A stretch of 64,000 nucleotides of DNA. Source: Escherichia phage APCEc01. The translations under genes and the position numbers were made by a program. Each line of letters begins with the position of its first letter. The first letter of the stretch is position 1. The notes below the pieces were generated by a model. It made no database searches. It was given only the letters and a program-made list of their open reading frames with translations, and was not told where the DNA came from. The DNA is taken from the sequence record NC_029091.1. The stretch is one strand, 5' to 3'. Positions 6,861 through 64,000 of this stretch are shown here, in pieces.

Positions 6861-8594
6861 TTACCCAATATCAATACGAGATCCGTCAACAGTGTATTGT
6901 CCTGAAGCTACTGAGCTCATTGTAGACATTGTTTCTGCCCAATCCCCGGCAACAGTCATATCAACATTACCATTAACAGTCCATTTAACGTTTCCGTTGA
7001 CGGTGTAATCATGATTCCCTTCGACCTGAGTTTTTGCATCACCTTTAACAAGAATATCTGCATTTCCGTCAACAACTATTTTGATATTACCCTTAACGTA
7101 AAGAGTTCCATCGCCTTCAACAGTTTTAGATTGATTACCACGAATAAAGATTGTGTCATTGCCGTCTATTTGATGGAGGCGGTCTGCCATGTTATAATAT
7201 ATTTCATTAGCACCAACGTTAACAAGCTTATCGCCAGAAATCAAAAAGTTCCCATCGCCATTAGTGATGTCAAAAAGGTCTTCTACAGTTTTACGAGTAC
7301 GACGCCCAGACGGAGAAACTTCCTCATATGACCCTGTTGGATGAACTAAGCGATAACGTTCATTACCTGGAGTATCGTCAAATTCTTGGATATGACCGCT
7401 TTCTGTTTCCATAGCATGAACGTATGGATACTCACCACGATAACTTGATTCCGGTTCTTTAAAAAGGATGCGTGAATCTAATGGAACAGGAGGACCAGCT
7501 GGGTCTTCTGGATCGGTATTTCTAGTAACTAAATCGGCACCAACTCCTGGTGAAGGCGGCGTTTTAACAGGAACACCATATGATTCCATGTTACCGGTTA
7601 AAATAATTGTTGTTACACGTGAAGCGCGTCCTTTAGTCTGTTGGAACCATAATGAATCGCGTCCAGATTTGTATGCAGTTTTCCAATCGCCTGCGGCCAT
7701 TGCTTTAAGCATAGTATTGAATTTTGCTACACCACCAACGCCCATTTGGAAACACATGTTTTCTAATGCCATTTGACGAGACCTGTTCATTTTAGCATAA
7801 ACAGGACCTACTTTAGAATTAGAACGAATGTCTTTCTGCATCTTAGCAAGGTCTTTCTCAAATAACGCTGTTGCTTCTTCTAATGTAATAGTTCCCGGAT
7901 TTCCTGTTACTTCACGCCCTACTTGATCGGATAACAATTTATTAATTCGAGACATATCTCGGGTCTTTTCCATTACGATAAGGTGTCCAATACCTACGGT
8001 AGGATATCCGAGATGGTCCCAATACACTTTATCACGAAGACCTTCGTCACGACGTAACATTTCTGTTATTGTAAAATTAGGGTCATCATCTTCTGGAATA
8101 TTTGCTAAATCTGTATCATCTGGGTTTATACCATAATCCAAGTTGTTATCTTGAATTACGTTAGAGTTTGAATAATAACCAGCTTCACCACCTTGGTTTA
8201 ATACGTTCGTATCATTACCTAAACGTCGTGGATACTGGCCTGTCGGGTCTGAAAAACCTTCAAGTCTATTAGGCTTTTCACGTACGATTCCACCGTATGT
8301 ACCAAGTACAATCCCGTTTGTTTTCCATTTGTCTAAGAAATGACCATATACTCGAGTTCCTTCAACAGGACCTGTAACAGAACCACCAATACCTGACATT
8401 GATGCAGACGTAATAGGTTGAATAACAGTCATCCATGGAAGTTTTTCTGTAGGAATACCTTGTACATCACCTTGTGCTCTCTGTGCTGGATGAAGACCAA
8501 CGACTCGAACTCGAACTCGCCCTTGTTTTAATGGGTCCATTCTGTCCTCGACAACACCCACGAACCAATTAAGGCTACTGCTAATCATTTCCAT
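6861..8594 (-). CDS. 5: baseplate central spike / tail lysozyme gp5
   Basis: 577-aa ORF with a T4-lysozyme-like domain (YPTVGIGHLIVMEKTRDMSRINKLLSDQVGREVTGNPGTITLEEA) and C-terminal VxGNxxxxVxGN beta-helix repeats. Confidence 0.92.
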   Translation of the reverse strand: MEMISSSLNWFVGVVEDRMDPLKQGRVRVRVVGLHPAQRAQGDVQGIPTEKLPWMTVIQPITSASMSGIGGSVTGPVEGTRVYGHFLDKWKTNGIVLGTYGGIVREKPNRLEGFSDPTGQYPRRLGNDTNVLNQGGEAGYYSNSNVIQDNNLDYGINPDDTDLANIPEDDDPNFTITEMLRRDEGLRDKVYWDHLGYPTVGIGHLIVMEKTRDMSRINKLLSDQVGREVTGNPGTITLEEATALFEKDLAKMQKDIRSNSKVGPVYAKMNRSRQMALENMCFQMGVGGVAKFNTMLKAMAAGDWKTAYKSGRDSLWFQQTKGRASRVTTIILTGNMESYGVPVKTPPSPGVGADLVTRNTDPEDPAGPPVPLDSRILFKEPESSYRGEYPYVHAMETESGHIQEFDDTPGNERYRLVHPTGSYEEVSPSGRRTRKTVEDLFDITNGDGNFLISGDKLVNVGANEIYYNMADRLHQIDGNDTIFIRGNQSKTVEGDGTLYVKGNIKIVVDGNADILVKGDAKTQVEGNHDYTVNGNVKWTVNGNVDMTVAGDWAETMSTMSSVASGQYTVDGSRIDIG

Positions 8595-9169
8595 TATGCA
8601 ATCTCCATCTCACGAATCAAATCAGTAATAAACGAGTTTATATCTTCTTTTGCAACAATTTTTATTTTACGAAGTTTTTCGTTATCTAATACAGCCGCTT
8701 CATAAATATCTACTGCAGCTAAAGGTCCTTTATATTGCGGATACTTACGAGCTTCATCACCTTTATCGTACCACACTAAAGGCTCGTCAGGATATGAAAC
8801 TAAATTGTAAAATTTCTCACGGTTCTCGTTAATATGATAAAGAATTTGGTCGCCGCCTGCATTAGCATATTTCTGAATAGAAGCTTGATACGCTGCTTCC
8901 TGAGATGTAATCCAACCATAATACGGGTCGTAGTTGTCATTACACATCAAAAGGACCCAGTATAATTGAGGGTTGCCATAAATGATATTCGCTAGTTCTT
9001 CAGGACGCGGAGAGCCTTTAATATAATAAGAACGTAATCTATAATTGGCAGCAACACGCTTAAAGTACTCTTTATAGTTACGAAATATGTCTGTCATAGG
9101 AATAGTAGGTGCATTCTTATCAACTGTTTTAGCACTATATCCTATTGGGTCGAAGAATGTAAATAACAA
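8594..9169 (-). CDS. 53: baseplate wedge protein gp53
   Basis: 191-aa ORF immediately upstream of gene 5 with 1-nt overlap; apparent TTG start preceded by GGAGG-like RBS; size and position match T4 gp53. Confidence 0.8.
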   Translation of the reverse strand: MLFTFFDPIGYSAKTVDKNAPTIPMTDIFRNYKEYFKRVAANYRLRSYYIKGSPRPEELANIIYGNPQLYWVLLMCNDNYDPYYGWITSQEAAYQASIQKYANAGGDQILYHINENREKFYNLVSYPDEPLVWYDKGDEARKYPQYKGPLAAVDIYEAAVLDNEKLRKIKIVAKEDINSFITDLIREMEIA

Positions 9170-9196
9170 GATAGTCTCCTTCCAATATGAAATTGG

Positions 9197-9204
9197 TATA
9201 AATA
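9197..9204 (+). promoter_or_regulatory. T4-type late promoter (TATAAATA) for gene 4
   Basis: Exact TATAAATA octamer about 27 nt upstream of the gene 4 ATG. Confidence 0.6.
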
Positions 9205-9211
9205 ATAATAC

Positions 9212-9219
9212 TATTTATA
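9212..9219 (-). promoter_or_regulatory. T4-type late promoter (TATAAATA on minus strand) for gene 53
   Basis: Plus-strand TATTTATA is TATAAATA on the minus strand, about 43 nt upstream of the gene 53 start; divergent from the gene 4 promoter. Confidence 0.55.
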
Positions 9220-9230
9220 AGGAGGACAAC

Positions 9231-9680
9231 ATGGCCTACTCTGGTAAATGGGTCCCAAAAAATTTAAAAAAATACCGTGGAGACCATACCAAAATAACGT
9301 ATCGTTCAAACTGGGAAAAATTCTTTTTCGAATGGTTGGATAAAAATCCAGAAATTATTGCATGGGGTAGTGAAACAGCAGTAATTCCATATTTTTGTAA
9401 TGCTGAAGGTAAGAAACGTCGATACTATATGGACATATGGATGAAAGATGCATCAGGTCAAGAGTTCTTTGTAGAAATAAAACCAAAGAAAGAAACTCAG
9501 CCACCTATTAAACCGGTGAATCTTACAACTGCGGCTAAGAAACGTTATATGAATGAAATCTACACGTGGTCTGTGAACTGTGACAAATGGAAAGCTGCCT
9601 CAGCTGTTGCTGAAAAGAGAAATATAAAATTTCGAGTTCTAACCGAAGATGGTCTTAGAAAACTCGGATACAAGGGGTAA
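9231..9680 (+). CDS. 4: head completion protein gp4
   Basis: 150-aa product from ATG at 9231 ([11 protein letters not shown]...) after RBS AAGGAGG; divergent from gene 53 as in T4. Confidence 0.8.
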
Positions 9681-9682
9681 TT

Positions 9683-10504
9683 ATGAGCATATTCCAAATT
9701 ATATCTGAAGGCGTACAAGCCCCTAAGATTGCTCAGTCTATGAATGAAAGAAAATGGATTGAGATAGGATTAGAATACAAGAAAGCTAAAGAGAAAGGAA
9801 TCACTGCAAAAGCATTTGCAGAATCAAAAGGAATAAAATACTCGTCGTTTACATCTGCAATGTCTAGATATGCATCATCTATTAAGACTGCACAGAAAAT
9901 TGAAACGCTTGAATCTAAACCTAAAAATAAACTCAATAAGCAAGAACGTCAACTTCTGATGATAAACTCGTTTCGCAGTTCAATACGAGAAAAGATTAGA
10001 AATGAAGGCGCAGCAGTAAACAACAAATCATCTAAGTGGTTTGTTGAAACAATTAAAAAAAGTGTAAAAGGTCATAAAGTAGTCAAGCCTACGCCAGGCA
10101 AAATTTATACTTACGTGTATGATGCTAAACATAAAGATACTCTGCCATACTGGGACCGATATCCTTTGATTATTTATTTAGGATTAGGTAAACATAATTT
10201 GATGTATGGGTTAAACTTGCACTATATCCCACCTAAAGCACGTCAACAGTTTCTTGAAGAATTGCTGAAGCAATATGCTAGCACAACTACTATTACTAAT
10301 AACACAAAGTTGAAGATAGACTGGAGCAAGGTGAAAGGATTTCAAGGTGCTGACAAAATGATTAAAGCATACCTGCCAGGCCACATTAGAGGAACAATAA
10401 CAGAAATAGCTCCTAAAGACTGGGCTAACATAATCATGTTACCTACTCAGCAGTTTATGTCAAAAGGAAAACGTTTCTCTGCGAATACTGTTTGGAAATC
10501 TTAA
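9683..10504 (+). CDS. 2: DNA end protector protein gp2
   Basis: 273-aa ORF (T4 gp2 is 274 aa) in conserved 4-2-3-1 order. Confidence 0.8.
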
Positions 10505-51557: not shown

Positions 51558-53242
51558 AATCATTTAAATTAAATCGTGTTCGTTATCAAAACATCATGTC
51601 GGTAGGTGGGAATCCTATCGATATCCAATTAGATAAAGTCCAAAAGACCTTAATCACCGGTAAAAATGGCGGTGGTAAATCTACGATGTTAGAAGCCATT
51701 ACTTTCGGACTTTTCGGTAAACCATTTCGTGATGTTAAGAAAGGACAAATCATTAATAGCACGAACAAGAAAGAGCTCTTAGTTGAGCTTTGGATGGAAT
51801 TCGATGATAAAAAATACTTCATTAGACGCGGCCAAAAGCCCAATATTTTCGAAATCTCCGTTGACGGTGTTCGTCTCGATGAATCTGCCAGCAGTCGTGA
51901 CTTCCAAGAAGAATTTGAACGTAGCATCGGAATGTCATACGCGTCTTTTAAACAGATCGTTGTGCTTGGGACGGCAGGGTATACCCCTTTCATGGCTCTT
52001 AGCACCCCTGCTCGTAGAAAACTTGTCGAAGACCTTTTAGAAGTCGGCACACTCGCTGAAATGGATAAAATCAATAAGTCTCAAGTTCGAGAACTTAATT
52101 CCCAGGGACAAGTTCTCGATGCTAAGAAAGATGGTGTTATCCAACAAATTAAGATTTATAACGAGAATATCGAACGTCAAAAGAAATTATCTGGTGATAA
52201 TGTAGCGCGTCTACAGAATATGTATGACGACCTAGCCAAAGAAGCTCGTTCATTAAAAGCAGAAATCGAAGAAGCTAATGAGCGACTACTTAATATCGTT
52301 CTTGATGAAGACCCTACTGAGGCATTCAACAAGATAGGACAAGAAGCATTCTTGATTAAATCTAAAATCGACTCATACAACAAAGTTATTAAGATGTATC
52401 ACGATGGCGGTACATGTCCTACTTGCGCATCACAGTTGCACCAGGGTGACCCTATTGTCTCTAAGATTACCGATAAGCTTCACGAATGTAATCACTCATT
52501 CGAGCAACTTACATGTCACAGAGATAACCTGAGTGTCCTAGTGGACGAATATAGAGCTAATGTTAAGACTAAACAGGACCTTGCATCTGATATTCGTACC
52601 AAGAAACAAGCAATGATTGCCACTATTGATAAAGCTAAGAAAGTTAAAGCTGCAATAGAACAAGCCTCGGCGGAATTTATCGACCATGCCGATGAGATAG
52701 CTTTGCTTCAAAAAGAACTTGATAAAATCATTAAAACAAAATCAGATATCGTTCTTGAAAAATACCATCGTGGTATTATTACAGATATGTTAAAAGATTC
52801 TGGTATTAAAGGTGCTATCATTAAAAAATATGTGCCTCTGTTCAACAAGCAGATTAACCATTATCTTAAAATCATGGAAGCCGATTACGTGTTTTCTATT
52901 GATGAAGAATTCAATGAATCTATAAAATCACGTGGCCGTGAAGATTTTAGTTATGCTTCATTTAGTCAAGGTGAAAAGGCACGTATCGATATCGCATTGT
53001 TGTTTACATGGCGAGATATTGCTGAAAAGGTCTCTGGTGTTAAAATCAACACTCTGATTCTTGATGAGGTTTTTGATGGGGCAGTTGATTCTGAAGCTGT
53101 TAAGGCTATAGATACCATTCTTGGAAGTTTACAAAATACTAACGTGTTCATTATTTCTCATAGGGACCATGACCCTCAACGTTATGGACAACATTTGCAA
53201 ATGAGCAAAGTTGGACGATTTACTGTAATGACTGTTTCATAA
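51554..53242 (+). CDS. 46: recombination ATPase subunit gp46 (Rad50/SbcC-like)
   Basis: 562 aa, Walker A GKNGGGKST, central coiled coil with CPTC zinc hook, C-terminal LILDEVFDG. Confidence 0.93.
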   Translation: MKSFKLNRVRYQNIMSVGGNPIDIQLDKVQKTLITGKNGGGKSTMLEAITFGLFGKPFRDVKKGQIINSTNKKELLVELWMEFDDKKYFIRRGQKPNIFEISVDGVRLDESASSRDFQEEFERSIGMSYASFKQIVVLGTAGYTPFMALSTPARRKLVEDLLEVGTLAEMDKINKSQVRELNSQGQVLDAKKDGVIQQIKIYNENIERQKKLSGDNVARLQNMYDDLAKEARSLKAEIEEANERLLNIVLDEDPTEAFNKIGQEAFLIKSKIDSYNKVIKMYHDGGTCPTCASQLHQGDPIVSKITDKLHECNHSFEQLTCHRDNLSVLVDEYRANVKTKQDLASDIRTKKQAMIATIDKAKKVKAAIEQASAEFIDHADEIALLQKELDKIIKTKSDIVLEKYHRGIITDMLKDSGIKGAIIKKYVPLFNKQINHYLKIMEADYVFSIDEEFNESIKSRGREDFSYASFSQGEKARIDIALLFTWRDIAEKVSGVKINTLILDEVFDGAVDSEAVKAIDTILGSLQNTNVFIISHRDHDPQRYGQHLQMSKVGRFTVMTVS

Positions 53243-53270
53243 ACGCTTTAACACGATGTGGTTATAATGA
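53243..53270 (+). promoter_or_regulatory. MotA-dependent middle promoter candidate
   Basis: AAACGCTTTA at 53241-53250, 12 nt, TATAAT at 53263-53268; inverted repeat GATGTGGT/ACCACATC around the -10. Confidence 0.5.
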
Positions 53271-53296
53271 CCACATCAAATTAAATGGAGAACAAC

Positions 53297-53485
53297 ATGG
53301 AGTATTCAACTGGACAACATCTTCTCGTTGTCCCTGAAATTAAAAAATATGTTTTGACCAATACGTTTTCAGGTGAAGAACATATTGTTACTGAACAAAT
53401 GCTCAAATCTGCTTTTAAAGATGAGTATAATAAAATAATGTCTAATCGCAATTCCGCATGGACAGTTACCGACTTCTACGAATAA
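53297..53485 (+). CDS. hypothetical protein
   Basis: 62-aa product from ATG after GGAG. Confidence 0.45.
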   Translation: MEYSTGQHLLVVPEIKKYVLTNTFSGEEHIVTEQMLKSAFKDEYNKIMSNRNSAWTVTDFYE

Positions 53486-53497
53486 GAGAGAAATAAT

Positions 53498-53914
53498 ATG
53501 TTTACTACTGCTAAAGGTTTTACCGCTGCTGATCTGAAAGTTACTTCTATCCGTACTGACGCTAACCCGCATAACCATAATCGTGTTCGTAAAGCATGGG
53601 TCCTGCATTGTGATGACGCAAGTGCTAAAAAACTCCAATCTTTGCCACAAGAAACTCGTTTTATGATTTATGGTTTTATTGATAACGATGTGTCTGATAT
53701 GTGGATTCATTTGATGCGTAAGCACTATAAAGATTCTATCGAAGCAGGTGCTAAAATCGTTCTTGATAAAGACGGTTCTGAACGCCTTGAAGATTTTTAC
53801 TGTGTTGATGCCGACGAACAACTAATTGCAGCTGGCGAAATTGTTGCTTCTAAAATTCCAGAATATATTGAATCACTGCCTGAAGCTATTAAAAAGCAGA
53901 TTGTTGCTGCATAA
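53498..53914 (+). CDS. rpbA: RNA-polymerase-binding protein RpbA (by position)
   Basis: 138-aa ORF immediately upstream of gene 45. Confidence 0.6.
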   Translation: MFTTAKGFTAADLKVTSIRTDANPHNHNRVRKAWVLHCDDASAKKLQSLPQETRFMIYGFIDNDVSDMWIHLMRKHYKDSIEAGAKIVLDKDGSERLEDFYCVDADEQLIAAGEIVASKIPEYIESLPEAIKKQIVAA

Positions 53915-53956
53915 TAAATTTGTTATAAACTTTGAATTGTCTTGAAAGGAAATAAA

Positions 53957-54643
53957 ATGAAACTGTCTAAAGATACTATCGCTATTCTGAAAAACTTTGC
54001 CTCTATTAACTCTGGCATTCTGCTGAGTCAAGGTAAATTTATTATGACTCGTGCAGTTAATGGCACCACTTATGCGGAAGCAAATATCTCTGATGAAATT
54101 GATTTTGACGTAGCACTTTATGATTTGAATAGCTTCTTAAGCATTTTGAGTCTAGTGTCTGATGATGCCGAAATTTCAATGCATACTGATGGCAATATTA
54201 AAATTGCAGATACACGTTCCACAGTTTATTGGCCTGCTGCCGACAAGAGCACCATTGTTTTTCCTAATAAGCCAATTCAATTCCCAGTGGCTTCTGTGAT
54301 TACTGAAATTAAAGCTGAAGACCTTCAACAATTGCTTCGAGTTTCACGTGGACTTCAGATTGATACAATTGCTATTACAAATAAAGATGGTAAAATTGTT
54401 ATCAATGGCTATAATAAAGTTGAAGATTCCGGACTAACTCGTCCTAAGTATTCTTTGACTCTTACTGATTATGACGGTTCTAATAACTTTAACTTCGTAA
54501 TCAATATGGCTAATATGAAAATCCAGCCAGGTAACTATAAAGTAATGTTGTGGGGAGCTGGTGATAAAGTTGCAGCTAAGTTTGAAAGCTCTCAAGTAAG
54601 TTATGTTATTGCGATGGAAGCCGATTCTACTCACGACTTCTAA
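53957..54643 (+). CDS. 45: sliding clamp gp45
   Basis: 228-aa product MKLSKDTIAILKNFASINSGILLSQGKFIMTRAVNGTTYAEANISDEIDFDVALYDLNSFL..., T4/RB69-type clamp. Confidence 0.95.
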   Translation: MKLSKDTIAILKNFASINSGILLSQGKFIMTRAVNGTTYAEANISDEIDFDVALYDLNSFLSILSLVSDDAEISMHTDGNIKIADTRSTVYWPAADKSTIVFPNKPIQFPVASVITEIKAEDLQQLLRVSRGLQIDTIAITNKDGKIVINGYNKVEDSGLTRPKYSLTLTDYDGSNNFNFVINMANMKIQPGNYKVMLWGAGDKVAAKFESSQVSYVIAMEADSTHDF

Positions 54644-54647
54644 GTCA

Positions 54648-54675
54648 AAGCTTTACGTTTATTGTGATACGATTA
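54648..54675 (+). promoter_or_regulatory. MotA-dependent middle promoter candidate for gene 44
   Basis: AAAGCTTTA box ending 54655, 12 nt, TACGAT at 54668-54673; followed by hairpin TGGAGGA-GAAA-TCCTCCA at 54676-54693. Confidence 0.5.
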
Positions 54676-54718
54676 TGGAGGAGAAATCCTCCAGTTTAAT
54701 GATAATGAGGAAAATTAC

Positions 54719-55681
54719 ATGATTACTATCAATTCCAAAGAACACATTCTAGAACAGAAATATCGTCCTTCTTCCATTGACGAATGTATTCTGCCTGCGT
54801 ATGACCATGAAACATTCAAGTCTTTAGTATCTAAAGGAAAACTTCCTCATATTATTTTACACTCTCCATCTCCTGGTACCGGTAAAACAACCGTAGCAAA
54901 AGCATTATGTAATGATATCAATGCCGAAATGATGTTCGTCAACGGTTCTGATTGTAAGATTGATTTTGTGCGTGGTCCATTAACTGCATTTGCTCGTTCA
55001 GTCTCAATGGAAGGCAAGCCTAAAGTTATCGTTATCGATGAATTTGACCGTAGTGGCCTTGCTGAATCACAACGGCACCTTCGTACGTTTATGGAAGAAT
55101 TCTCTAGTAACTGTTCTATTATTATTACTGCCAACAACATCGATGGAATTATCGAACCATTACGTAGTCGTTGTCGAGTTATCGAATTCGGACGTCCGAC
55201 TGAAGAAGATAAAATCTCGATGATGAAGAAAATGATTCATCGTATGGTTGAAATCTGTAAGAACGAAAATATCGAAATCGCTGATATGAAAGTTGTTGCA
55301 GCTTTGGTTAAAAAGAACTTCCCGGACTTTCGTCGTACAATTGGCCAATTAGACCAGTACTCGTCTAAAGGTGTTCTTGATGCAGGTATTTTGTCAATTG
55401 TAACCAATGATCGTGGCACGGTAGATGATGTCATAGAAGCAATGAAGAACAAAGATATCAAACAACTTCGTGCATTAGCTCCAAAATATGCTGCAGATTA
55501 TTCATGGTTCATCGATAAATTAGTTTCTGAGTGTTATGACAAAGTTGCACCAGGTAAAAGTATTATTTCGCTTTATGAAATTGCAGGCGAAAATAATAAG
55601 TTTCATGGATTAGCAAGTAATATTGAATTACATGTTATGTATATGCTTCTTCAACTGACCTGCGAACTAACTTGGAAATAA
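54719..55681 (+). CDS. 44: clamp loader large subunit gp44
   Basis: 320 aa, Walker [11 protein letters not shown], Walker [10 protein letters not shown]. Confidence 0.95.
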
Positions 55682-55682
55682 T

Positions 55683-56246
55683 ATGAACTTATTCGATGAT
55701 GACGTCCAGCTTAACGAGCACCAAATTGCATGGAAGTCTAATGACGCTGATGCGATTCAAAAATGTGCTGATATGTTTAAAGAAAAACCTGAGAATGAAT
55801 TCTTTAAAATCATTAATGCTATTAATGAAAAGAAATCTATGTCAATTGCTCAGGTCGACTACTCAAAATTTATGGTTGAGAACTCATTATCCCAGTTCCC
55901 GGAATGTATGCCAGCTGTTTACATGATGAACTTAGTCGGTTCTGAATTAAGTGATGAAGCGCACTTCAACTATATGATGGCTGCAATTCCGCGTGGTCGT
56001 CGATTCTCTAAATGGGCTAAACTAGTTGAAGACACTTCAGAGTTACTAGTTATCAAACTGTTGATGAAACATTACACAATCAACATGAATGATGCTACCG
56101 AGTATAAGCGGCTCCTTGAAAAAAATAACAAGTTGCCAATAGTCCTTAAAGAACTGAAGGCCATGGTCACTGATGAGTTTCTCAAAGAAGTTACAAAAAA
56201 TGTGAAAGAACAAAAACAATTTAAAAAATTAGCATTGGAATGGTAA
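55683..56246 (+). CDS. 62: clamp loader small subunit gp62
   Basis: 187 aa (same as T4 gp62). Confidence 0.9.
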
Positions 56247-56248
56247 AA

Positions 56249-56617
56249 ATGATCGAAATTAAATTGAAGAACCCCGAAGATTTTCTGAAAGTCAAAGAGA
56301 CTCTGACCCGTATGGGCATCGCTAATAACAAGGATAAAGTTCTTTATCAGTCCTGTCATATCCTCCAAAAGCAAGGTAAATATTACATCGTCCACTTTAA
56401 AGAAATGCTGCGTATGGACGGACGTCAGGTTGATATTGATGGTGAAGACTATCAGCGACGTGATTCGATTGCTCAGTTGCTTGAAGACTGGGGCTTGATT
56501 GTTATTGAAGACTCTGCTCGTGAAGATCTGTTTGGCCTTACTAATAACTTCCGTGTTATCTCTTTTAAACAGAAAGATGACTGGACTTTGAAAGCAAAAT
56601 ATACAATTGGTAATTAA
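56249..56617 (+). CDS. regA: translational repressor RegA
   Basis: 122-aa product MIEIKLKNPEDFLKVKETLTRMGIANNKDKVLYQSCHILQKQGKYYIVHFKEMLRMDGRQ..., close to T4 RegA. Confidence 0.93.
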   Translation: MIEIKLKNPEDFLKVKETLTRMGIANNKDKVLYQSCHILQKQGKYYIVHFKEMLRMDGRQVDIDGEDYQRRDSIAQLLEDWGLIVIEDSAREDLFGLTNNFRVISFKQKDDWTLKAKYTIGN

Positions 56618-56621
56618 AGCA

Positions 56622-56641
56622 ATGGGACTTCGGTCCCATTT
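56622..56641 (+). terminator. hairpin (UUCG loop) after regA
   Basis: ATGGGAC-TTCG-GTCCCAT followed by TTGG; TATAAT 6 nt downstream. Confidence 0.45.
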
Positions 56642-56698
56642 GGAGTATAATAAGTTCATCAACAAACAAAAGACAATAACTCGTCTAAAGGAAATTAA

Positions 56699-59410
56699 AT
56701 GAAAGAATTTTACTTAACGGTTGAACAGATTGGTGATTCAATTTTTGAACGTTACATCGATTCTAATGGCCGTGAACGTACTCGTGAAGTAGAATATAAA
56801 CCATCACTGTTTGCTCATTGTCCAGAAAGTCAGGCTACGAAATATTTCGATATCTACGGTAAGCCGTGTACTCGTAAGTTGTTCGCTAATATGCGTGATG
56901 CCTCCCAATGGATTAAACGCATGGAAGATATCGGACTTGAAGCACTTGGCATGGACGATTTCAAATTGGCGTATTTGTCTGACACTTATAACTATGAAAT
57001 CAAATACGACCATACAAAAATTCGTGTGGCTAACTTCGACATCGAAGTAACATCTCCGGACGGGTTCCCTGAGCCGTCACAAGCAAAACATCCGATTGAT
57101 GCTATCACCCATTATGACTCAATTGACGACAGGTTCTACGTATTTGATCTATTGAATTCTCCATATGGTAATGTAGAAGAATGGTCTATTGAAATCGCTG
57201 CTAAGCTTCAAGAACAAGGCGGTGATGAAGTTCCATCTGAAATTATCGATAAAATCATTTATATGCCGTTCGATAACGAAAAAGAATTGTTGATGGAATA
57301 TCTCAACTTCTGGCAACAGAAAACTCCTGTCATTTTGACTGGATGGAACGTTGAGTCATTTGATATTCCATATGTGTATAACCGAATCAAGAATATTTTT
57401 GGCGAATCTACTGCGAAACGTTTATCGCCACATCGTAAAACTCGTGTTAAAGTTATCGAAAACATGTATGGTTCTCGTGAAATCATTACATTGTTCGGTA
57501 TCTCTGTTCTTGATTACATTGGCCTTTACAAAAAATTCTCTTTTACCAATCAACCGTCGTATTCTCTGGATTACATTTCAGAATTTGAATTGAACGTTGG
57601 TAAACTGAAATATGACGGCCCTATTTCTAAGCTTCGTGAAAGCAATCACCAACGATATATTTCTTATAACATTATCGACGTGTATCGTGTATTGCAAATT
57701 GATGCTAAGCGTCAGTTCATCAACTTGAGCTTGGACATGGGTTATTATGCTAAGATACAGATTCAATCTGTGTTTAGCCCAATTAAAACATGGGATGCTA
57801 TTATTTTTAATAGCCTTAAAGAGCAGAACAAGGTGATTCCACAAGGTCGTTCTCACCCGGTTCAACCTTATCCCGGCGCTTTTGTTAAGGAACCTATTCC
57901 AAATCGATACAAATATGTAATGAGTTTCGACCTTACATCTCTGTATCCAAGTATTATTCGCCAAGTGAATATTAGCCCGGAAACAATAGCAGGAACGTTT
58001 AAAGTAGCTCCATTGCATGATTATATTAACGCAATCGCTGAACGTCCTTCAGATGTGTACAGTTGCTCTCCTAACGGCATGATGTATTATAAAGACCGTG
58101 ATGGTGTAGTTCCAACTGAAATCACTAAGGTCTTTAATCAACGTAAAGAACATAAAGGTTACATGCTTGCAGCTCAACGTAATGGTGAAATAATTAAAGA
58201 GGCATTGCATAATCCTAATCTTTCTGTTGACGAACCATTAGATGTTGATTATCGTTTCGACTTCAGTGATGAGATTAAAGAAAAGATTAAAAAGTTGTCT
58301 GCTAAATCTCTTAATGAAATGTTGTTTAGAGCTCAACGTACTGAAGTTGCAGGTATGACCGCACAAATTAACCGTAAATTGCTTATCAACTCACTTTATG
58401 GTGCACTTGGCAACGTTTGGTTCCGTTATTATGATTTGCGTAATGCTACTGCAATCACAACATTCGGGCAAATGGCTTTACAGTGGATTGAACGTAAAGT
58501 TAATGAATATCTGAATGAAGTTTGTGGTACAGAAGGTGAAGCTTTCGTTCTATATGGTGATACAGACTCTATTTACGTATCTGCTGATAAAATTATCGAT
58601 AAGGTTGGTGAATCTAAATTCCGTGATACCAACCATTGGGTAGACTTCTTAGATAAGTTTGCACGTGAACGTATGGAACCTGCTATTGATAGAGGTTTCC
58701 GTGAAATGTGTGAATACATGAACAATAAACAACACTTAATGTTCATGGACCGAGAAGCTATCGCTGGTCCTCCGCTCGGTTCTAAAGGTATTGGTGGATT
58801 CTGGACTGGTAAGAAACGTTATGCATTAAACGTGTGGGATATGGAAGGAACCAGATACGCTGAGCCTAAACTCAAAATCATGGGTCTAGAGACTCAGAAA
58901 TCTTCGACCCCTAAAGCAGTACAGAAAGCTCTTAAAGAATGTATTCGTCGTATGCTTCAAGAAGGTGAAGAATCATTACAAGAATATTTTAAAGAGTTTG
59001 AAAAAGAATTCCGTCAATTGAATTATATTAGCATCGCGTCGGTATCTTCTGCGAATAACATTGCTAAATACGACGTAGGTGGATTCCCGGGTCCTAAATG
59101 CCCGTTCCATATTCGTGGAATTCTGACATATAACCGAGCTATCAAAGGTAATATTGATGCACCACAAGTTGTAGAAGGTGAAAAAGTATATGTTCTGCCT
59201 TTACGTGAAGGAAACCCATTCGGTGATAAATGTATCGCATGGCCTTCTGGTACTGAAATCACAGATTTAATTAAAGACGATGTACTTCATTGGATGGACT
59301 ACACTGTTCTCCTTGAGAAGACATTTATTAAACCACTTGAAGGATTCACATCAGCAGCTAAACTCGATTACGAGAAGAAAGCATCTCTGTTCGATATGTT
59401 TGATTTTTGA
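56699..59410 (+). CDS. 43: DNA polymerase gp43 (family B, RB69-type)
   Basis: 903 aa; MKEFYLTVEQIGDSIFERYIDSNGRERTREVEYKPSLFAHCPESQATKYFDIYGKPCTRKLF..., exo motif FDIEV, pol motifs DLTSLYPS and YGDTDS, C-terminal SLFDMFDF. Confidence 0.97.
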   Translation: MKEFYLTVEQIGDSIFERYIDSNGRERTREVEYKPSLFAHCPESQATKYFDIYGKPCTRKLFANMRDASQWIKRMEDIGLEALGMDDFKLAYLSDTYNYEIKYDHTKIRVANFDIEVTSPDGFPEPSQAKHPIDAITHYDSIDDRFYVFDLLNSPYGNVEEWSIEIAAKLQEQGGDEVPSEIIDKIIYMPFDNEKELLMEYLNFWQQKTPVILTGWNVESFDIPYVYNRIKNIFGESTAKRLSPHRKTRVKVIENMYGSREIITLFGISVLDYIGLYKKFSFTNQPSYSLDYISEFELNVGKLKYDGPISKLRESNHQRYISYNIIDVYRVLQIDAKRQFINLSLDMGYYAKIQIQSVFSPIKTWDAIIFNSLKEQNKVIPQGRSHPVQPYPGAFVKEPIPNRYKYVMSFDLTSLYPSIIRQVNISPETIAGTFKVAPLHDYINAIAERPSDVYSCSPNGMMYYKDRDGVVPTEITKVFNQRKEHKGYMLAAQRNGEIIKEALHNPNLSVDEPLDVDYRFDFSDEIKEKIKKLSAKSLNEMLFRAQRTEVAGMTAQINRKLLINSLYGALGNVWFRYYDLRNATAITTFGQMALQWIERKVNEYLNEVCGTEGEAFVLYGDTDSIYVSADKIIDKVGESKFRDTNHWVDFLDKFARERMEPAIDRGFREMCEYMNNKQHLMFMDREAIAGPPLGSKGIGGFWTGKKRYALNVWDMEGTRYAEPKLKIMGLETQKSSTPKAVQKALKECIRRMLQEGEESLQEYFKEFEKEFRQLNYISIASVSSANNIAKYDVGGFPGPKCPFHIRGILTYNRAIKGNIDAPQVVEGEKVYVLPLREGNPFGDKCIAWPSGTEITDLIKDDVLHWMDYTVLLEKTFIKPLEGFTSAAKLDYEKKASLFDMFDF

Positions 59411-59450
59411 TATAATGCCAAGGACGGCCAACTAATTAAATGAGAGAAAT

Positions 59451-60086
59451 ATGAAAACTACTCCTATTACTATCGCTATTGACGCAATCGTAAAACAAGC
59501 TTCATCTCTTGCCACTATGGCTAAAGTAATTAGTCAAAACCCTGCTCGTTATAATGCTATTCTAGAAACTCTTCGACGCCCTGGACTTAGTAATTATGAA
59601 AGCCGGGTAATTATTACAGGTGTTGGTAAGAATGCTAATATCGCAACTAAAGCTTCCGAGACTTTTGCTTCACTAGGTATTCCTAGCATGTATTTGAACA
59701 CCGGGCATTATTCTCATGGTGACGCAGGATTTATTGCGCCTAATGACGTGTTGATTCATATTAGTCGTTCTGGTAAAACTGAAGAAATGATAGGTGTTGC
59801 TAAACATCTTCGTATGATTCGTCCTCAGGTTAAACAGATTCTGTTACATTGTAACCCAGACATTCCACAAGAATACGAAGCTCTTTTTGATTATACGTTC
59901 TGTACCGGTATCGCGGTAGAAGTTGACGAGAACTCTTTAGCTCCGACTATGTCCACTACATTGTTGTTAGCGCTTATCGATACGTTTGCTATCAACCTTT
60001 CGTCTGAACGTGGATTTACCTCTAATGATTTCCTTAAGTTCCATCCAGGCGGTGCACTAGGTGCCATGTTACGAGGCGAACAATGA
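59451..60086 (+). CDS. D-arabinose-5-phosphate isomerase, SIS domain only (KdsD/GutQ-like, no CBS domains)
   Basis: 211 aa; VIITGVGKNANIATKASETFASLGIPSMYLNTGHYSHGDAGFIAPNDVLIHISRSGKTEE and LAPTMSTTLLLALIDTFAINLSSERGFTSNDFLKFHPGGALG parallel the KdsD SIS domain. Confidence 0.8.
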   Translation: MKTTPITIAIDAIVKQASSLATMAKVISQNPARYNAILETLRRPGLSNYESRVIITGVGKNANIATKASETFASLGIPSMYLNTGHYSHGDAGFIAPNDVLIHISRSGKTEEMIGVAKHLRMIRPQVKQILLHCNPDIPQEYEALFDYTFCTGIAVEVDENSLAPTMSTTLLLALIDTFAINLSSERGFTSNDFLKFHPGGALGAMLRGEQ

Positions 60087-60226
60087 AAGCAATAACAATA
60101 GGACTTTTACTATTGATGCTTGTCATGACTATCTACTGGAGCTTAACGGCTCCGGTAATGATTCCAACACTTGTAATTGGATGGATTATGATTGGACTAC
60201 AAGCAAAGTATGAATGCTTTAACTAG
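60083..60226 (+). CDS. small two-helix membrane peptide
   Basis: 47-aa ORF (MKAITIGLLLLMLVMTIYWSLTAPVMIPTLVIGWIMIGLQAKYECFN); start overlaps isomerase stop (ATGA); below the ORF-track length cut-off. Confidence 0.35.
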   Translation: MKAITIGLLLLMLVMTIYWSLTAPVMIPTLVIGWIMIGLQAKYECFN

Positions 60227-60267
60227 AATAGTGTACAATACTCCTACTTACCAATGAGGACTTCAAC

Positions 60268-61953
60268 ATGAAAAAAGCTGTTATTCTTGGTGCTGGACTG
60301 GCAACTCGTTTGTATCCAATAACGCATCATATTCCTAAGGTGCTTGTTAATTATAAACAAGACACTATTCTGAGCAATTTGTATACAATTTATTCTGACC
60401 TTGGCGCAGATGAAATTATTGTAGTAGTTCATTCAAAATTTGCTGAAACTGTTCGAGCTTATTGTGAGCAAGAAGGGTTCAATGTGACTATTCGTACAGT
60501 TGATGAAGCGTATGGTTCTGCTTATGCTCTTGCTAAATTACACAAAGATTTAGACGGCCATAATGTAATTGTTAACTGGTGTGATATTATTCCTGATTTT
60601 GGTTCATGGTCTTGGAATGTTAACGCAATCTATGTTAAGGGTGACGAATGTCGATATAATTTCGACGGTGAAAATATCACTAACGTAGGTTCAACAGGTG
60701 GTAATGTTGTAGGAATTTATCAGTTCAAAGACTGGGAATTCTATATGGGTTCTACCGATGAGGAAATTCATGAATACTGCAAAGGACGTGATTTCGTAGA
60801 ATTCCTTTACGGCAGCGCATTCAATAAATCAGAGCTTATGAATATAATTGATTTAGGTGATATGCCTAAACTTGAAAAGGCTCATGAAGTTCGTGAACTT
60901 AATCGTAGTTTTAATGCAGTTGAAATTGGTGAAGAAACTGTAACTAAATTCGCATTAACCGAACAGGGTCGAGCTCTTCAGAAAGATGAGATTTCGTGGT
61001 ATTTGAAAGTGAAATCAGATTCAGTTCCTCAGTTAGTTTCTGTTAATGAAAATAACTTTGAAATGGAACGCATTAAAGGTAAGCCAGCATTTGAATATAT
61101 TAAATCCAAATCAAGTCTTGCTCGTCCACAAATTGTTGATGCAATTTTAGATGCACTGAAATTCAGCACAGACACTTATTTTGTAAGTCCTGAAACTGTT
61201 CGTCGTGATTTCACTAAAGAATTCTATACGAAAGTTATTGATCGTTGTGAAAGCATTCAACCGTTGATTGATTCATTTGGTAAAATCACACATGTGAACT
61301 ACACTAAGATTGGACGTCTGAAGCCAATGCTGAAACAAGCTTTAGAACACCTTATTCGGTATCATAACCGTTCTCAGGGACAGTACTCTGTTATTCACGG
61401 TGACCCGAACTTCAGTAATACTATGATTACTGATAACGGCGAAGTCAAGTTTATCGACCCTCGTGGATATTTTGGCGAAACCAAGATTTACGGGCCAAAA
61501 TTGTATGATGAAGCTAAAGTGCTTTATGCTGTTTCAGGTTATGATGAATTCAATGCTAATCCGACCTGGGGGCAGTTTACTATTGATGAAACAACTTGTA
61601 ATGTGACTATTAACATCAATCCATTAGTTTACAAATATGGAAAGATGAGTTCGTTTAACGAGTATCATCATTTGGCAGTGGCAATTATCTGGATTGCATT
61701 AGGTGGTTATTTCAAGAATAATCCACTTAAAGCGGTAGCCGCATATTATAAAGGTATGGAACTTCTGACTAAGCAATTACGTAACATGGGCCGTGTACTT
61801 CAGGACGGCTCTATTAGTTATGACGTAGCAGAACCTGTAACGGCTACTCTGATTACAAAAAATCCTGGTAAATGGGTACTAACTGATAAAGAAACTGGTG
61901 TTTCCTATCGTCCAATCGGTGGCGATATCACTCATCAATGGGAACGAATCTAA
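60268..61953 (+). CDS. bifunctional sugar-1-phosphate nucleotidyltransferase / sugar kinase
   Basis: 561 aa; N-terminal MKKAVILGAGLATRLYPIT is the RmlA/GalU/LicC-type G-x-G-T-R-L motif; C-terminal part has kinase motifs HGDPNFSNTMI and FIDPRGYFG (APH/choline-kinase fold). Confidence 0.75.
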   Translation: MKKAVILGAGLATRLYPITHHIPKVLVNYKQDTILSNLYTIYSDLGADEIIVVVHSKFAETVRAYCEQEGFNVTIRTVDEAYGSAYALAKLHKDLDGHNVIVNWCDIIPDFGSWSWNVNAIYVKGDECRYNFDGENITNVGSTGGNVVGIYQFKDWEFYMGSTDEEIHEYCKGRDFVEFLYGSAFNKSELMNIIDLGDMPKLEKAHEVRELNRSFNAVEIGEETVTKFALTEQGRALQKDEISWYLKVKSDSVPQLVSVNENNFEMERIKGKPAFEYIKSKSSLARPQIVDAILDALKFSTDTYFVSPETVRRDFTKEFYTKVIDRCESIQPLIDSFGKITHVNYTKIGRLKPMLKQALEHLIRYHNRSQGQYSVIHGDPNFSNTMITDNGEVKFIDPRGYFGETKIYGPKLYDEAKVLYAVSGYDEFNANPTWGQFTIDETTCNVTININPLVYKYGKMSSFNEYHHLAVAIIWIALGGYFKNNPLKAVAAYYKGMELLTKQLRNMGRVLQDGSISYDVAEPVTATLITKNPGKWVLTDKETGVSYRPIGGDITHQWERI

Positions 61954-62339
61954 TGCACCGTGTAGAAAACATGCTTAATCTTTGTTTTGATGTCGATGAT
62001 TGTATAACAGAGTGGAATAACAATCGTGATTACGTGAACTTCAAACCTGACGTCGAAATGGTGTCTGCCATTAATGCCCTGTATGATGCAGGGCATACCA
62101 TAACGCTTTACACTGCTCGCGGTATGAAGTCAGTAGGTCCTGGTCGTATAGCAATTGACATTCTCCCAAGTCTTATTCAGAACTTGGCAAACATTGGCTT
62201 GAAGTACCATAATTTGCTAACACATAAACCAGTATATGATTGGATTATCGACGACAAAGCTATGCGTCCTGACGAATTCAAAGCTCTTATGAATAAAGGC
62301 GAATTCGAAACATTTAAATCATATAAACCGAATCTATAA
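61953..62339 (+). CDS. small HAD-superfamily phosphatase
   Basis: 128-aa product from ATG overlapping the upstream stop (TAATG); HAD motifs FDVDDCIT, TLYTARG, K, WIIDDK. Confidence 0.7.
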   Translation: MHRVENMLNLCFDVDDCITEWNNNRDYVNFKPDVEMVSAINALYDAGHTITLYTARGMKSVGPGRIAIDILPSLIQNLANIGLKYHNLLTHKPVYDWIIDDKAMRPDEFKALMNKGEFETFKSYKPNL

Positions 62340-62399
62340 TAATTTAAGTAAGACCTGCAAAAAAAAACCATCGCATCAATTAACGCGAGATGCAAAAAA

Positions 62400-63560
62400 A
62401 TGAATACTTTTAAAATCGGAACGAATTTTGATTTAGCTCTTCTTGATAAAATCGTAGAGCTCAATAAAACTTATCCTAATAGCTTGATAAATGAAGTATA
62501 CGGCTCTACAAGAGAAATGGCTTTTGTAGCAGCCAGACCTGATTTTAGGCTTCCTGACGTTGACAAAAAGATGTTAGAAGATTACGTTAAACGTTGTAAC
62601 GAATTAGGTATTTGCTTTAACTATACACTCAACACGATAAATCCTGGTTCAAAAAGAGAACTAGTTGAGTGGAAGAAGAAAGCTATTCAGGATTATGTTC
62701 AGTATCTTTGGTCAATAGGCGTATGGCGTATTACTATCGCTAACCCTGTTGTTATGGAAATTGTTCGTGAAGTCAATAAAGACATTGAGATTGAAGTTTC
62801 AACAATTCTACATGTCGATGCTGTAACTCAAATCAAATACTTGCATGACCAATATAATATCAAAAAGGTCTGCTGTGGAATTCATAAGAACCGTTCAGTT
62901 TCTTTCCTGAAGCGTGCAGCAGAGTTTTGCAATAAGAACAATATAATATTTGAAGTTCTTGTAAATGAGTTCTGTTCTAATGCTGGTAAAGGGTATACAA
63001 CACATTGTAGCTATCGTGACTCTTGCTATATTTTCCATAGTACTGATGTTACAGCTGATGATGCTAAATCCTTAAACGGATATCCTATGCAGCACTGTAT
63101 TAAAGCTCGTGATACAGACCCATTTAACTGGTTGAGAACTCGTTTTGTTCGTCCTCAAGATTTGAAACTTTATAATGATATTGGTATCACTCAATTCAAA
63201 GTTTCAGGACGTACAGGTAGCACAGACTACATTTTGAAAGTTCTTGAAGCATACGCTTCTGAAAAGTTTGAAGGTAATTTGTTAGAACTGTGGAAGCCTT
63301 TAGAGACTATTTTCACTCTTGAAAACGAAACTGAGTTTTCACATACAGTAAATATTGAAACCTCTTTGTTAGATGGCTTTTTAGAAAAAAGGTGGTTCAG
63401 ACATCCAGATTTCGATTGTGCTAATGAAATCTGCGGGACGACGTGTACATATTGTGAAAGATATTATAAACGTCAATTATCTAAAAACGGGTTAGCAGAA
63501 AACTCTATATCTATTATTGATATAACTAACTCTGATGACGCTTTGAGGTACCCGGAATGA
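62400..63560 (+). CDS. peptidase U32 family protein (Fe-S, RlhA/TrhP/UbiU-like)
   Basis: 386 aa; ANPVVMEIVREVNKDIEIEVSTILHVDAVTQIKYLH...IIFEVLVNEFCSNAGKGYTTHCSYRDSCY parallels the U32 core; extra C-terminal CANEICGTTCTYC cluster; assignment from memory, not HMM-verified. Confidence 0.5.
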   Translation: MNTFKIGTNFDLALLDKIVELNKTYPNSLINEVYGSTREMAFVAARPDFRLPDVDKKMLEDYVKRCNELGICFNYTLNTINPGSKRELVEWKKKAIQDYVQYLWSIGVWRITIANPVVMEIVREVNKDIEIEVSTILHVDAVTQIKYLHDQYNIKKVCCGIHKNRSVSFLKRAAEFCNKNNIIFEVLVNEFCSNAGKGYTTHCSYRDSCYIFHSTDVTADDAKSLNGYPMQHCIKARDTDPFNWLRTRFVRPQDLKLYNDIGITQFKVSGRTGSTDYILKVLEAYASEKFEGNLLELWKPLETIFTLENETEFSHTVNIETSLLDGFLEKRWFRHPDFDCANEICGTTCTYCERYYKRQLSKNGLAENSISIIDITNSDDALRYPE

Positions 63561-63796
63561 TTTCTAGAAAAACTTTTAACCACCAACTTAATGAAGAGAT
63601 TTTGACTATGAAACTGAACACTAATGAACAAATTCTTAAAAAGGCCCATCAGGGCCTTTTTGAAACTAAAGCGGCTAAAGTGATTAAAGAACCTGTTCAA
63701 TTAGAATACTACGCTGATGCATTTCTTCATAGTGTTCTTGGAAGTATCGATGCCGAAGCTTTACGTTATATCAATATTGCCAAGAAATTCAAATAA
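63557..63796 (+). CDS. hypothetical protein
   Basis: 79-aa ORF, start overlaps upstream stop. Confidence 0.5.
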   Translation: MISRKTFNHQLNEEILTMKLNTNEQILKKAHQGLFETKAAKVIKEPVQLEYYADAFLHSVLGSIDAEALRYINIAKKFK

Positions 63797-63820
63797 GCTT
63801 TACGAATTGAGTATATAATA
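63794..63820 (+). promoter_or_regulatory. MotA-dependent middle promoter candidate
   Basis: TAAGCTTTA box ending 63802, 11 nt, TATAAT at 63814-63819. Confidence 0.5.
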
Positions 63821-63837
63821 ATTGTATTGAGGTAAAC

Positions 63838-64000
63838 ATGGGAAAACATAACACAATGAAATATATCAAAGCCGCAGATTTTCAAACCGCATTTAAAGCA
63901 GTCAATCGTGAAATTTTAGAAAACCCGGAATTCGTAACTGATTCTCGTATTGGACGTTGTAATGAAATTGGGTCTATGACAGTAGTTGTTGACACTCCAT
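63838..64000 (+). CDS. 42: dCMP hydroxymethylase (gene 42-like), 5' part only
   Basis: Partial ORF MGKHNTMKYIKAADFQTAFKAVNREILENPEFVTDSRIGRCNEIGSMTVVVDTP; EFVTD...IG...VVVDTP loosely parallels T4 gp42 DFVVDKTGVKTIEIIGASFVADEP; runs off window. Confidence 0.5.
   Translation, partial: MGKHNTMKYIKAADFQTAFKAVNREILENPEFVTDSRIGRCNEIGSMTVVVDTP

Follow-up and report, generated by a model that had tools for sequence, protein, structure and literature searches.

The DNA of phage RB69 carries alpha- and beta-arabinofuranose on 5-hydroxy-dC (Lee 2026, PMC13326640). The D configuration of the sugar was determined on purified glycosyl-nucleoside, the stated structure being the tri-arabinoside of phage DLP3 (PMC13326640). 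A pathway that starts from arabinose-5-phosphate (A5P) would be expected to yield the sugar as D-Araf. A route to the sugar donor has been proposed that leads from ribulose-5-phosphate (Ru5P) to A5P (gp55), from there to Araf-1,5-P2 (C-terminal domain of gp52:53) and Araf-1-P (gp51), and finally to UDP-Araf (N-terminal domain of gp52:53) (PMC13326640). ORF055c and ORF53_52c of RB69 had already been proposed as genes for the synthesis of UDP-arabinose (Thomas 2018, PMC6024577). For the kinase, pyrophosphorylase and phosphatase activities of AfhE and AfhF from phage HY126, biochemical work is cited by PMC13326640, and the 5-hydroxy-dCMP synthase activity of gp48 was shown experimentally (PMC13326640); gp55 is not marked 'confirmed experimentally' in Table 1 of that study. 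The literature accessible to our search contained no assay of a phage isomerase.

The isomerase gene described here and its proposed role are already annotated and published as part of the RB69 cassette (Thomas 2018, PMC6024577; Lee 2026, PMC13326640). In RefSeq, the RB69 protein NP_861745.1 is named "arabinose 5-phosphate isomerase" with a remark on its similarity to GutQ, and the same name is used in many phage records. The isomerase is the proposed entry point that diverts ribulose-5-phosphate into UDP-D-arabinofuranose in RB69-like phages. Arabinose on every cytosine helps the phage DNA to evade restriction enzymes, and the pathway is of relevance to the phage-host arms race and to the choice of therapeutic phages.

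Results

A short isomerase gene downstream of the phage DNA polymerase gene

We analyzed a stretch of 64,000 nucleotides from Escherichia phage APCEc01 (the window), which by its sequence we assign to the genome of a T4-like phage, Mosigvirus. An earlier note on this DNA had reported an ORF of 211 aa, and an ATG-to-TGA frame of this length was found at exactly the position given:

59451..60086, + strand: isomerase ORF, 211 aa, ATG-to-TGA reading frame; predicted single-SIS-domain D-arabinose-5-phosphate isomerase, orthologue of RB69 ORF055c/gp55

The genes for gp46, gp45, gp44, gp62, RegA and the DNA polymerase gp43 are located 5' of the isomerase gene. Directly upstream of the latter no convincing promoter was found, the only element being a TATAAT at 59411-59416, past the gp43 stop.

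The search with a SIS-domain HMM that the note had proposed returned PF01380 as the sole Pfam domain of the protein (residues 51-181, E=4.1e-10), at 40 bits and thus above the cutoff of 25. No CBS domain was detected in the Pfam search of the whole 211-aa protein. In a multiple alignment, the protein ends at about residue 207 of the 328 residues of KdsD, and the tandem CBS region is absent. The lack of the CBS pair, as read in the note, was thus confirmed by Pfam, which finds SIS only, and by the pairwise alignment with KdsD, which stops just before that pair. A shifted or frameshifted CBS pair 3' of the isomerase was considered and excluded: about 180 nt separate its stop from the next gene, which encodes a nucleotidyltransferase/kinase, and since these encode a hydrophobic ORF of 47 aa, there is no space for a relocated pair. 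The note had further taken the loss of the CBS domains as a departure from the bacterial enzymes. This point needs a correction, because the SIS-only relatives 3ETN and c3406/5UQI exist in bacteria, and the loss is therefore not a phage-specific oddity.

A word-indexed homologue search of 5.8 billion proteins returned almost only phage proteins. It identified isomerase homologues of 205-215 aa with 43-81% identity in Straboviridae whose hosts are Escherichia, Erwinia, Kosakonia, Enterobacter, Serratia, Pectobacterium, Pseudomonas and Acinetobacter. Among the 120 homologues listed from this search, all were short (133-262 aa, mostly 205-215 aa), and they came largely from contigs in the range of 150-310 kb or from named Straboviridae. 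On the DNA level, a 4.5-kb query from the isomerase on (window 59300-63800) had matches in 195 phage records, and in 151 of these the match extended over at least 80% of the query; identity was 99.1% to Shigella phage JK42 and 98-99% to many Mosigvirus records. Judged by these comparisons, the isomerase gene is kept well beyond chance.

The isomerase groups with the KdsD/GutQ/KpsF branch of SIS proteins

The best NCBIfam matches of the isomerase were KpsF/GutQ (TIGR00393, E=5e-32), KdsD (2e-30) and GutQ (2e-22). All other families matched at 1e-6 or weaker, and the GmhA model was absent from the matches. The alignments were limited to the SIS part of the models (positions 2-153 of 268, or 47-202 of 328). 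With 111.5 vs 203.7 bits for TIGR00393 and 106.2 vs 505 bits for the KdsD equivalog, the scores remained under the curated cutoffs. This is to be expected, as the models extend over the CBS region, which has no counterpart in the phage protein; the low scores are thus due to the absent domain, and a divergence of the SIS domain is not the cause.

In BLASTP, the isomerase displayed 36% identity to KdsD of E. coli K-12 over 192 aa (E=6e-33), and the aligned stretch stopped at residue 202 of the 328 in KdsD, immediately ahead of the CBS pair; in the multiple alignment, the identity to KdsD was 32%. The comparison with E. coli GmhA yielded E=5.7. Over its full length, the protein matched phrog_5670, 'arabinose 5-phosphate isomerase', with E=1.5e-116. 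The description in the earlier note of a close match to the KdsD/GutQ SIS domain was appropriate insofar as the conserved blocks are present, although 'closely' is a little generous for identities of 36% and 32%.

A sequence search of the PDB gave nearly full-length matches to 3ETN from B. fragilis (220 aa, E=6.8e-25) and 5UQI (198 aa, E=1.7e-22), the latter being titled as c3406 of E. coli CFT073 in complex with A5P, followed by the SIS domain of KdsD (2XHZ, 1.4e-18) and a Listeria protein (3FXA, 6.5e-13). AlphaFold2, with an input of 40 homologues, gave a model with a pLDDT of 95.2 and a pTM of 0.90. The top Foldseek match of the model was 2XHZ (TMt 0.91, rmsd 1.8), with 3ETN and 5UQI also matched; ranks 1-9 were occupied by chains of KdsD, 3ETN, 5UQI and 3FXA, the last of these at rank 7. 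GmhA structures appeared only at ranks of about 42-47 with a TMq of 0.54. The isomerase has a SIS catalytic domain with a flavodoxin-like alpha/beta fold, and it is nearer to the arabinose-5-phosphate isomerase (API) branch than to the other SIS branches (GmhA, GlmS, RpiR/MurR, AgaS, PHI). With about 200 aa and an API-type SIS domain alone, it fits the SIS-only type of API represented by c3406 and the B. fragilis protein. Membership in the GmhA family or another SIS subfamily was excluded by the NCBIfam matches, the BLASTP result (E=5.7) and the Foldseek rank. The assignment to the API family rather than to GmhA made in the note was upheld by the same data (KdsD E=6e-33 vs GmhA E=5.7; GmhA structures from rank ~42).

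RpiR/MurR/HexR-type SIS regulators also gave weak family and fold matches. Such matches would be in line with a non-catalytic protein that binds a sugar phosphate through its SIS domain and, as the SIS modules of RpiR/MurR do, has a sensory or regulatory function. However, these matches were weaker by at least 20 orders of magnitude in E-value, Pfam found no HTH domain in the isomerase, and the Lys, His and Glu residues that map to KdsD are strictly conserved. We therefore regard a purely regulatory role as extremely improbable.

Active-site residues of KdsD are conserved

In an alignment of 10 phage homologues (36-75% identity) with E. coli KdsD and GutQ, the residues K60, H89, E112, E157 and H198 of the isomerase were invariant, and the same was observed across an alignment of 40 phage sequences. 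They correspond to K59, H88, E111, E152 and H193 of KdsD, which we take to be the catalytically important residues according to mutagenesis and structure work on that enzyme. The 2XHZ chain has Ala at position 59 vs Lys in genomic KdsD; it is a K59A active-site mutant, in line with the importance of K59. The blocks GVGKN, SRSGKTEE, LAPTxSTT and HPGGALG are all found in the isomerase, and the Ser/Thr stretches that bind phosphate (SxSG and APTxST) are likewise conserved. The phage clade has conserved features of its own: GDAGF replaces GDLGM, an HCN motif is present, and there is a short insertion ahead of the E157 block.

The conserved residues also bear on the substrate. A SIS-only isomerase might act on a different sugar phosphate, such as glucose-6-phosphate or some other ketose phosphate, in which case KdsD and GutQ of the host would provide the A5P. 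The Listeria SIS-only protein 3FXA was likewise a significant match (E=6.5e-13, Foldseek rank 7), and the NCBIfam scores under the equivalog cutoffs could be read in the same direction. The 3FXA family is reportedly a glucose-6-phosphate isomerase and not an API, and thus a SIS-only architecture is no guarantee of the substrate. However, the phage isomerase is far nearer to 3ETN, to 5UQI with its bound A5P and to KdsD than to 3FXA, and all five residues mapped from KdsD are invariant. In addition, the gene adjoins the arabinose kinase/nucleotidyltransferase gene even in distant phages, and the sugar on the DNA is D-arabinofuranose. Taken together, these results make a substrate other than that of the APIs improbable.

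The isomerase gene opens an RB69-type cassette

The following features were located 3' of the isomerase gene:

60083..60226, + strand: strongly hydrophobic ORF, 47 aa, MKAITIGLLLLMLVMTIYWSLTAPVMIPTLVIGWIMIGLQAKYECFN; read from the sequence and translated
60215..60239, + strand: candidate middle promoter, TGCTTTA-12 nt-TACAAT; exact pattern match only, 29 nt 5' of the nucleotidyltransferase/kinase gene
60268..61953, + strand: nucleotidyltransferase/kinase, 561 aa; Pfam NTP_transferase at residues 3-99, weak kinase-family matches at 308-409
61938..62339, + strand: HAD-type sugar phosphatase, 133 aa; NCBIfam TIGR01689 capsule biosynthesis phosphatase, E=4.3e-13; phrog_1238
62400..63560, + strand: U32-family protein, 386 aa; Pfam Peptidase_U32, E=7e-11; phrog_5757; RB69 gp50 orthologue by family match
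63557..63796, + strand: small ORF, 79 aa; phrog_8601 (unknown function), E=6e-51
63838..64000, + strand: start of the ThyA-like 5-hydroxy-dCMP synthase gene, 54 codons; 100% identical to the N-terminus of RB69p048, cut by the window end

The isomerase, kinase/nucleotidyltransferase, HAD phosphatase and ThyA-like synthase genes of the RB69-type cassette (gp45-55 in RB69, Afh genes in HY126) are all represented, in RB69 order, between 59451 and 64000. Four products were compared directly, namely the isomerase, the nucleotidyltransferase/kinase in its two halves and the N-terminus of the ThyA-like protein; they are 97-100% identical to those of RB69. Judging from the order of genes in RB69, the orthologue of the arabinosyltransferase gp46:47 and the gene for a nucleotide kinase are expected past 64000, and the orthologue of gp3, likewise an arabinosyltransferase, elsewhere in the genome. 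The suggestion in the earlier note that a neighbouring cassette diverts the sugar agrees with these findings, as genes for a nucleotidyltransferase/kinase, a HAD phosphatase and a 5-hydroxy-dCMP synthase adjoin the isomerase gene and a corresponding RB69 route is published.

The start of the 47-aa ORF overlaps the stop of the isomerase gene (ATGA), which suggests translational coupling of the two; from its hydrophobic sequence, the product may be a small membrane protein. At this site, the RB69 record has a shorter ORF054c, 'similar to T4 42-imm intercistronic region'. The pattern TGCTTTA-12 nt-TACAAT found near the end of the 47-aa ORF matches the T4 MotA-box consensus of middle promoters. 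The consensus pattern has 13 matches in the window vs 3.9 expected, a number reached in none of 100 shuffles. A near-match, AAGCTTTA-11 nt-TATAAT, is located ahead of the ThyA-like gene at about 63796-63822. A generic scan for sigma-70 promoters and terminators gave sites no commoner than in shuffles.

Based on Pfam and NCBIfam, the 561-aa protein is predicted to comprise an N-terminal sugar-1-phosphate nucleotidyltransferase and a C-terminal sugar kinase resembling APH and choline kinases; its NCBIfam matches are nucleotidylyltransferases. It is encoded by one intact ORF here, while the RB69 reference (8095..9781) is split into ORF053c and ORF052c, to which residues 1-218 and 219-561, respectively, are 99% identical. 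The intact ORF supports the published view that the split in RB69 is due to a sequencing error or a frameshift. The 561-aa protein has been described as an analogue of AfhE of phage HY126 (PMC13326640).

The gene for the HAD phosphatase overlaps the nucleotidyltransferase/kinase gene by 16 nt, and its product was assigned as the RB69 gp51 orthologue by family matches. PHROGs (phrog_1238) and the RB69 RefSeq record label this protein 'phosphoheptose isomerase'; this label is probably wrong, because the protein matches TIGR01689 and has an FDVDD Asp motif. The phosphatase is an analogue of AfhF, and its proposed role is to remove the 5-phosphate from arabinofuranose-1,5-bisphosphate (PMC13326640).

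The assignment of the phosphatase to a capsule biosynthesis family also touches on a different role of the isomerase, in which it would be an auxiliary gene boosting or altering Kdo, LPS or capsule synthesis of the host, apart from DNA modification. A5P is the committed precursor of Kdo, and the RB69 annotation remarks on a likeness to the capsule-expression protein GutQ/KpsF. However, no homologues of kdsA, kdsB or kdsC were seen in 52000-64000, and the isomerase gene clusters with the gene for the 5-hydroxy-dCMP synthase. Furthermore, the neighbouring enzymes turn A5P into nucleotide-arabinose and not into Kdo, and RB69 and the Acinetobacter phage DLP3, which both encode the isomerase, both have arabinosylated DNA (PMC13326640). 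A role in modifying the host envelope is thus very improbable. Homologues of the isomerase also occur in phages of seven further host genera.

The C-terminal end of the U32-family protein carries the Cys-rich motif CANEICGTTCTYC. Other members of the U32 family are oxygen-independent hydroxylases of RNA pyrimidines and of ubiquinone. The isomerase gene has no U32 gene beside it in L005-L008, which are contigs of distant phages, and DLP3 has no U32 entry either. The protein (gp50) appears as a 'sugar or heterocycle reductase' in Table 1 of PMC13326640. The 79-aa ORF is tentatively equated with RB69 ORF049c, as it agrees with it in size and position: RB69p049, too, has a length of 240 nt and a 4-nt overlap with the end of the U32 gene.

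Pairing of isomerase and kinase genes in distant phages

In phage contigs whose isomerase is only 46-51% identical, the isomerase gene is still followed directly by a gene for a protein of about 545 aa in which an NTP_transferase and an APH domain are combined. In proteins from Butyrivibrio, the nucleotidyltransferase/kinase module is fused to a C-terminal SIS domain (Thomas 2018, PMC6024577). As a separate observation, a gene for a DNA glycosylase of the Fpg/Nei type (PF01149 and PF06831) was found 2-3 kb 3' of the gene pair and beside topoisomerase II genes in distant contigs of 152-310 kb:

L005/L006 13078..13929: Fpg/Nei-type glycosylase, distant phage contigs
L007 11092..11952: Fpg/Nei-type glycosylase, distant phage contig
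L008 4344..5204: Fpg/Nei-type glycosylase, distant phage contig

Discussion

Based on domain content, family placement, conserved residues, fold, orthology to RB69 gp55 and gene neighbourhood, we propose, with a probability of roughly 90%, that the gene product is a D-arabinose-5-phosphate isomerase of the SIS-only type, belonging to the KdsD/GutQ/KpsF branch, and that it feeds the synthesis of UDP-D-arabinofuranose for arabinosylation of the phage DNA. The phage isomerase (gp55) would itself convert ribulose-5-phosphate to A5P. The kinase domain of the 561-aa protein would then add a phosphate at C1, yielding arabinofuranose-1,5-bisphosphate. From this compound, the HAD phosphatase is predicted to take off the 5-phosphate, and the nucleotidyltransferase domain would convert the resulting Araf-1-P to UDP-D-arabinofuranose. 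Phage arabinosyltransferases encoded outside the window would finally put arabinose on the 5-hydroxycytosine of the phage DNA, and the arabinosylated DNA would be protected from restriction. We infer that a pentose already phosphorylated at position 5 would lock the furanose form from the start and that, as a result, UDP-Araf could be made without a mutase.

A counterpoint to this proposal is that the host already has KdsD and GutQ, and given these the phage copy could be dispensable. A copy of its own may, on the other hand, allow the phage to raise the A5P flux above the supply by the two host enzymes. With 37.3% G+C and a genome of about 168 kb, some 63,000 cytosines would have to be served, and one or two arabinoses on each of them would be a plausible reason for a phage isomerase beside KdsD and GutQ.

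For the bacterial SIS-only APIs, feedback control by CMP-Kdo is reported. It is conceivable, if doubtful, that the SIS-only isomerases of phages, instead of duplicating host KdsD, form a deregulated lineage with a function of its own that is freed from this feedback and tuned for very high A5P flux. GDAGF, the HCN motif and the insertion before E157 would underlie such a property. If true, a deregulated lineage adds only regulatory detail to an already described pathway.

Among described systems, the closest is that of RB69. ORF055c/gp55 (NP_861745.1) is the same gene, also encoding 211 aa, with 97% identity (205/211) and six substitutions. It shares the position directly 3' of the gene for the DNA polymerase gp43 and 5' of the genes for the nucleotidyltransferase/kinase, the phosphatase, the U32 protein and the ThyA-like protein. 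Further orthologues in Straboviridae are collected in PHROG 5670 and include gp83 of DLP3.

Among bacterial proteins, c3406 (5UQI) and 3ETN of B. fragilis are the best or near-best matches in sequence and fold. They likewise consist of a SIS domain of about 200-220 aa without the CBS pair, but are only about 28-30% identical to the phage isomerase in structural alignments. The bacterial SIS-only APIs of the c3406 and B. fragilis type serve Kdo or capsule pathways. KdsD and GutQ of E. coli resemble the phage protein in the SIS fold, in the five conserved residues and, for KdsD, in 36% identity over the SIS domain. In contrast to the phage isomerase, KdsD (328 aa) and GutQ have two CBS domains in tandem at the C-terminus. 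The product of the E. coli enzymes is passed to Kdo-8-P synthase, whereas that of the phage enzyme is proposed to go to a C1 kinase.

A different parallel is offered by the ADP-heptose pathway of GmhA, HldE and GmhB, in which a SIS isomerase yields an aldose phosphate, a kinase phosphorylates C1, a HAD phosphatase takes off the distal phosphate and a nucleotidyltransferase activates the sugar. GmhA itself has the SIS fold alone in common with the phage isomerase (E=5.7, TM ~0.54), and the phage route differs in using a pentose and, as reported, UDP as the nucleotide (PMC13326640). The order of reactions, however, is mirrored by the route proposed for the phage, and kinase and nucleotidyltransferase are fused in both systems.
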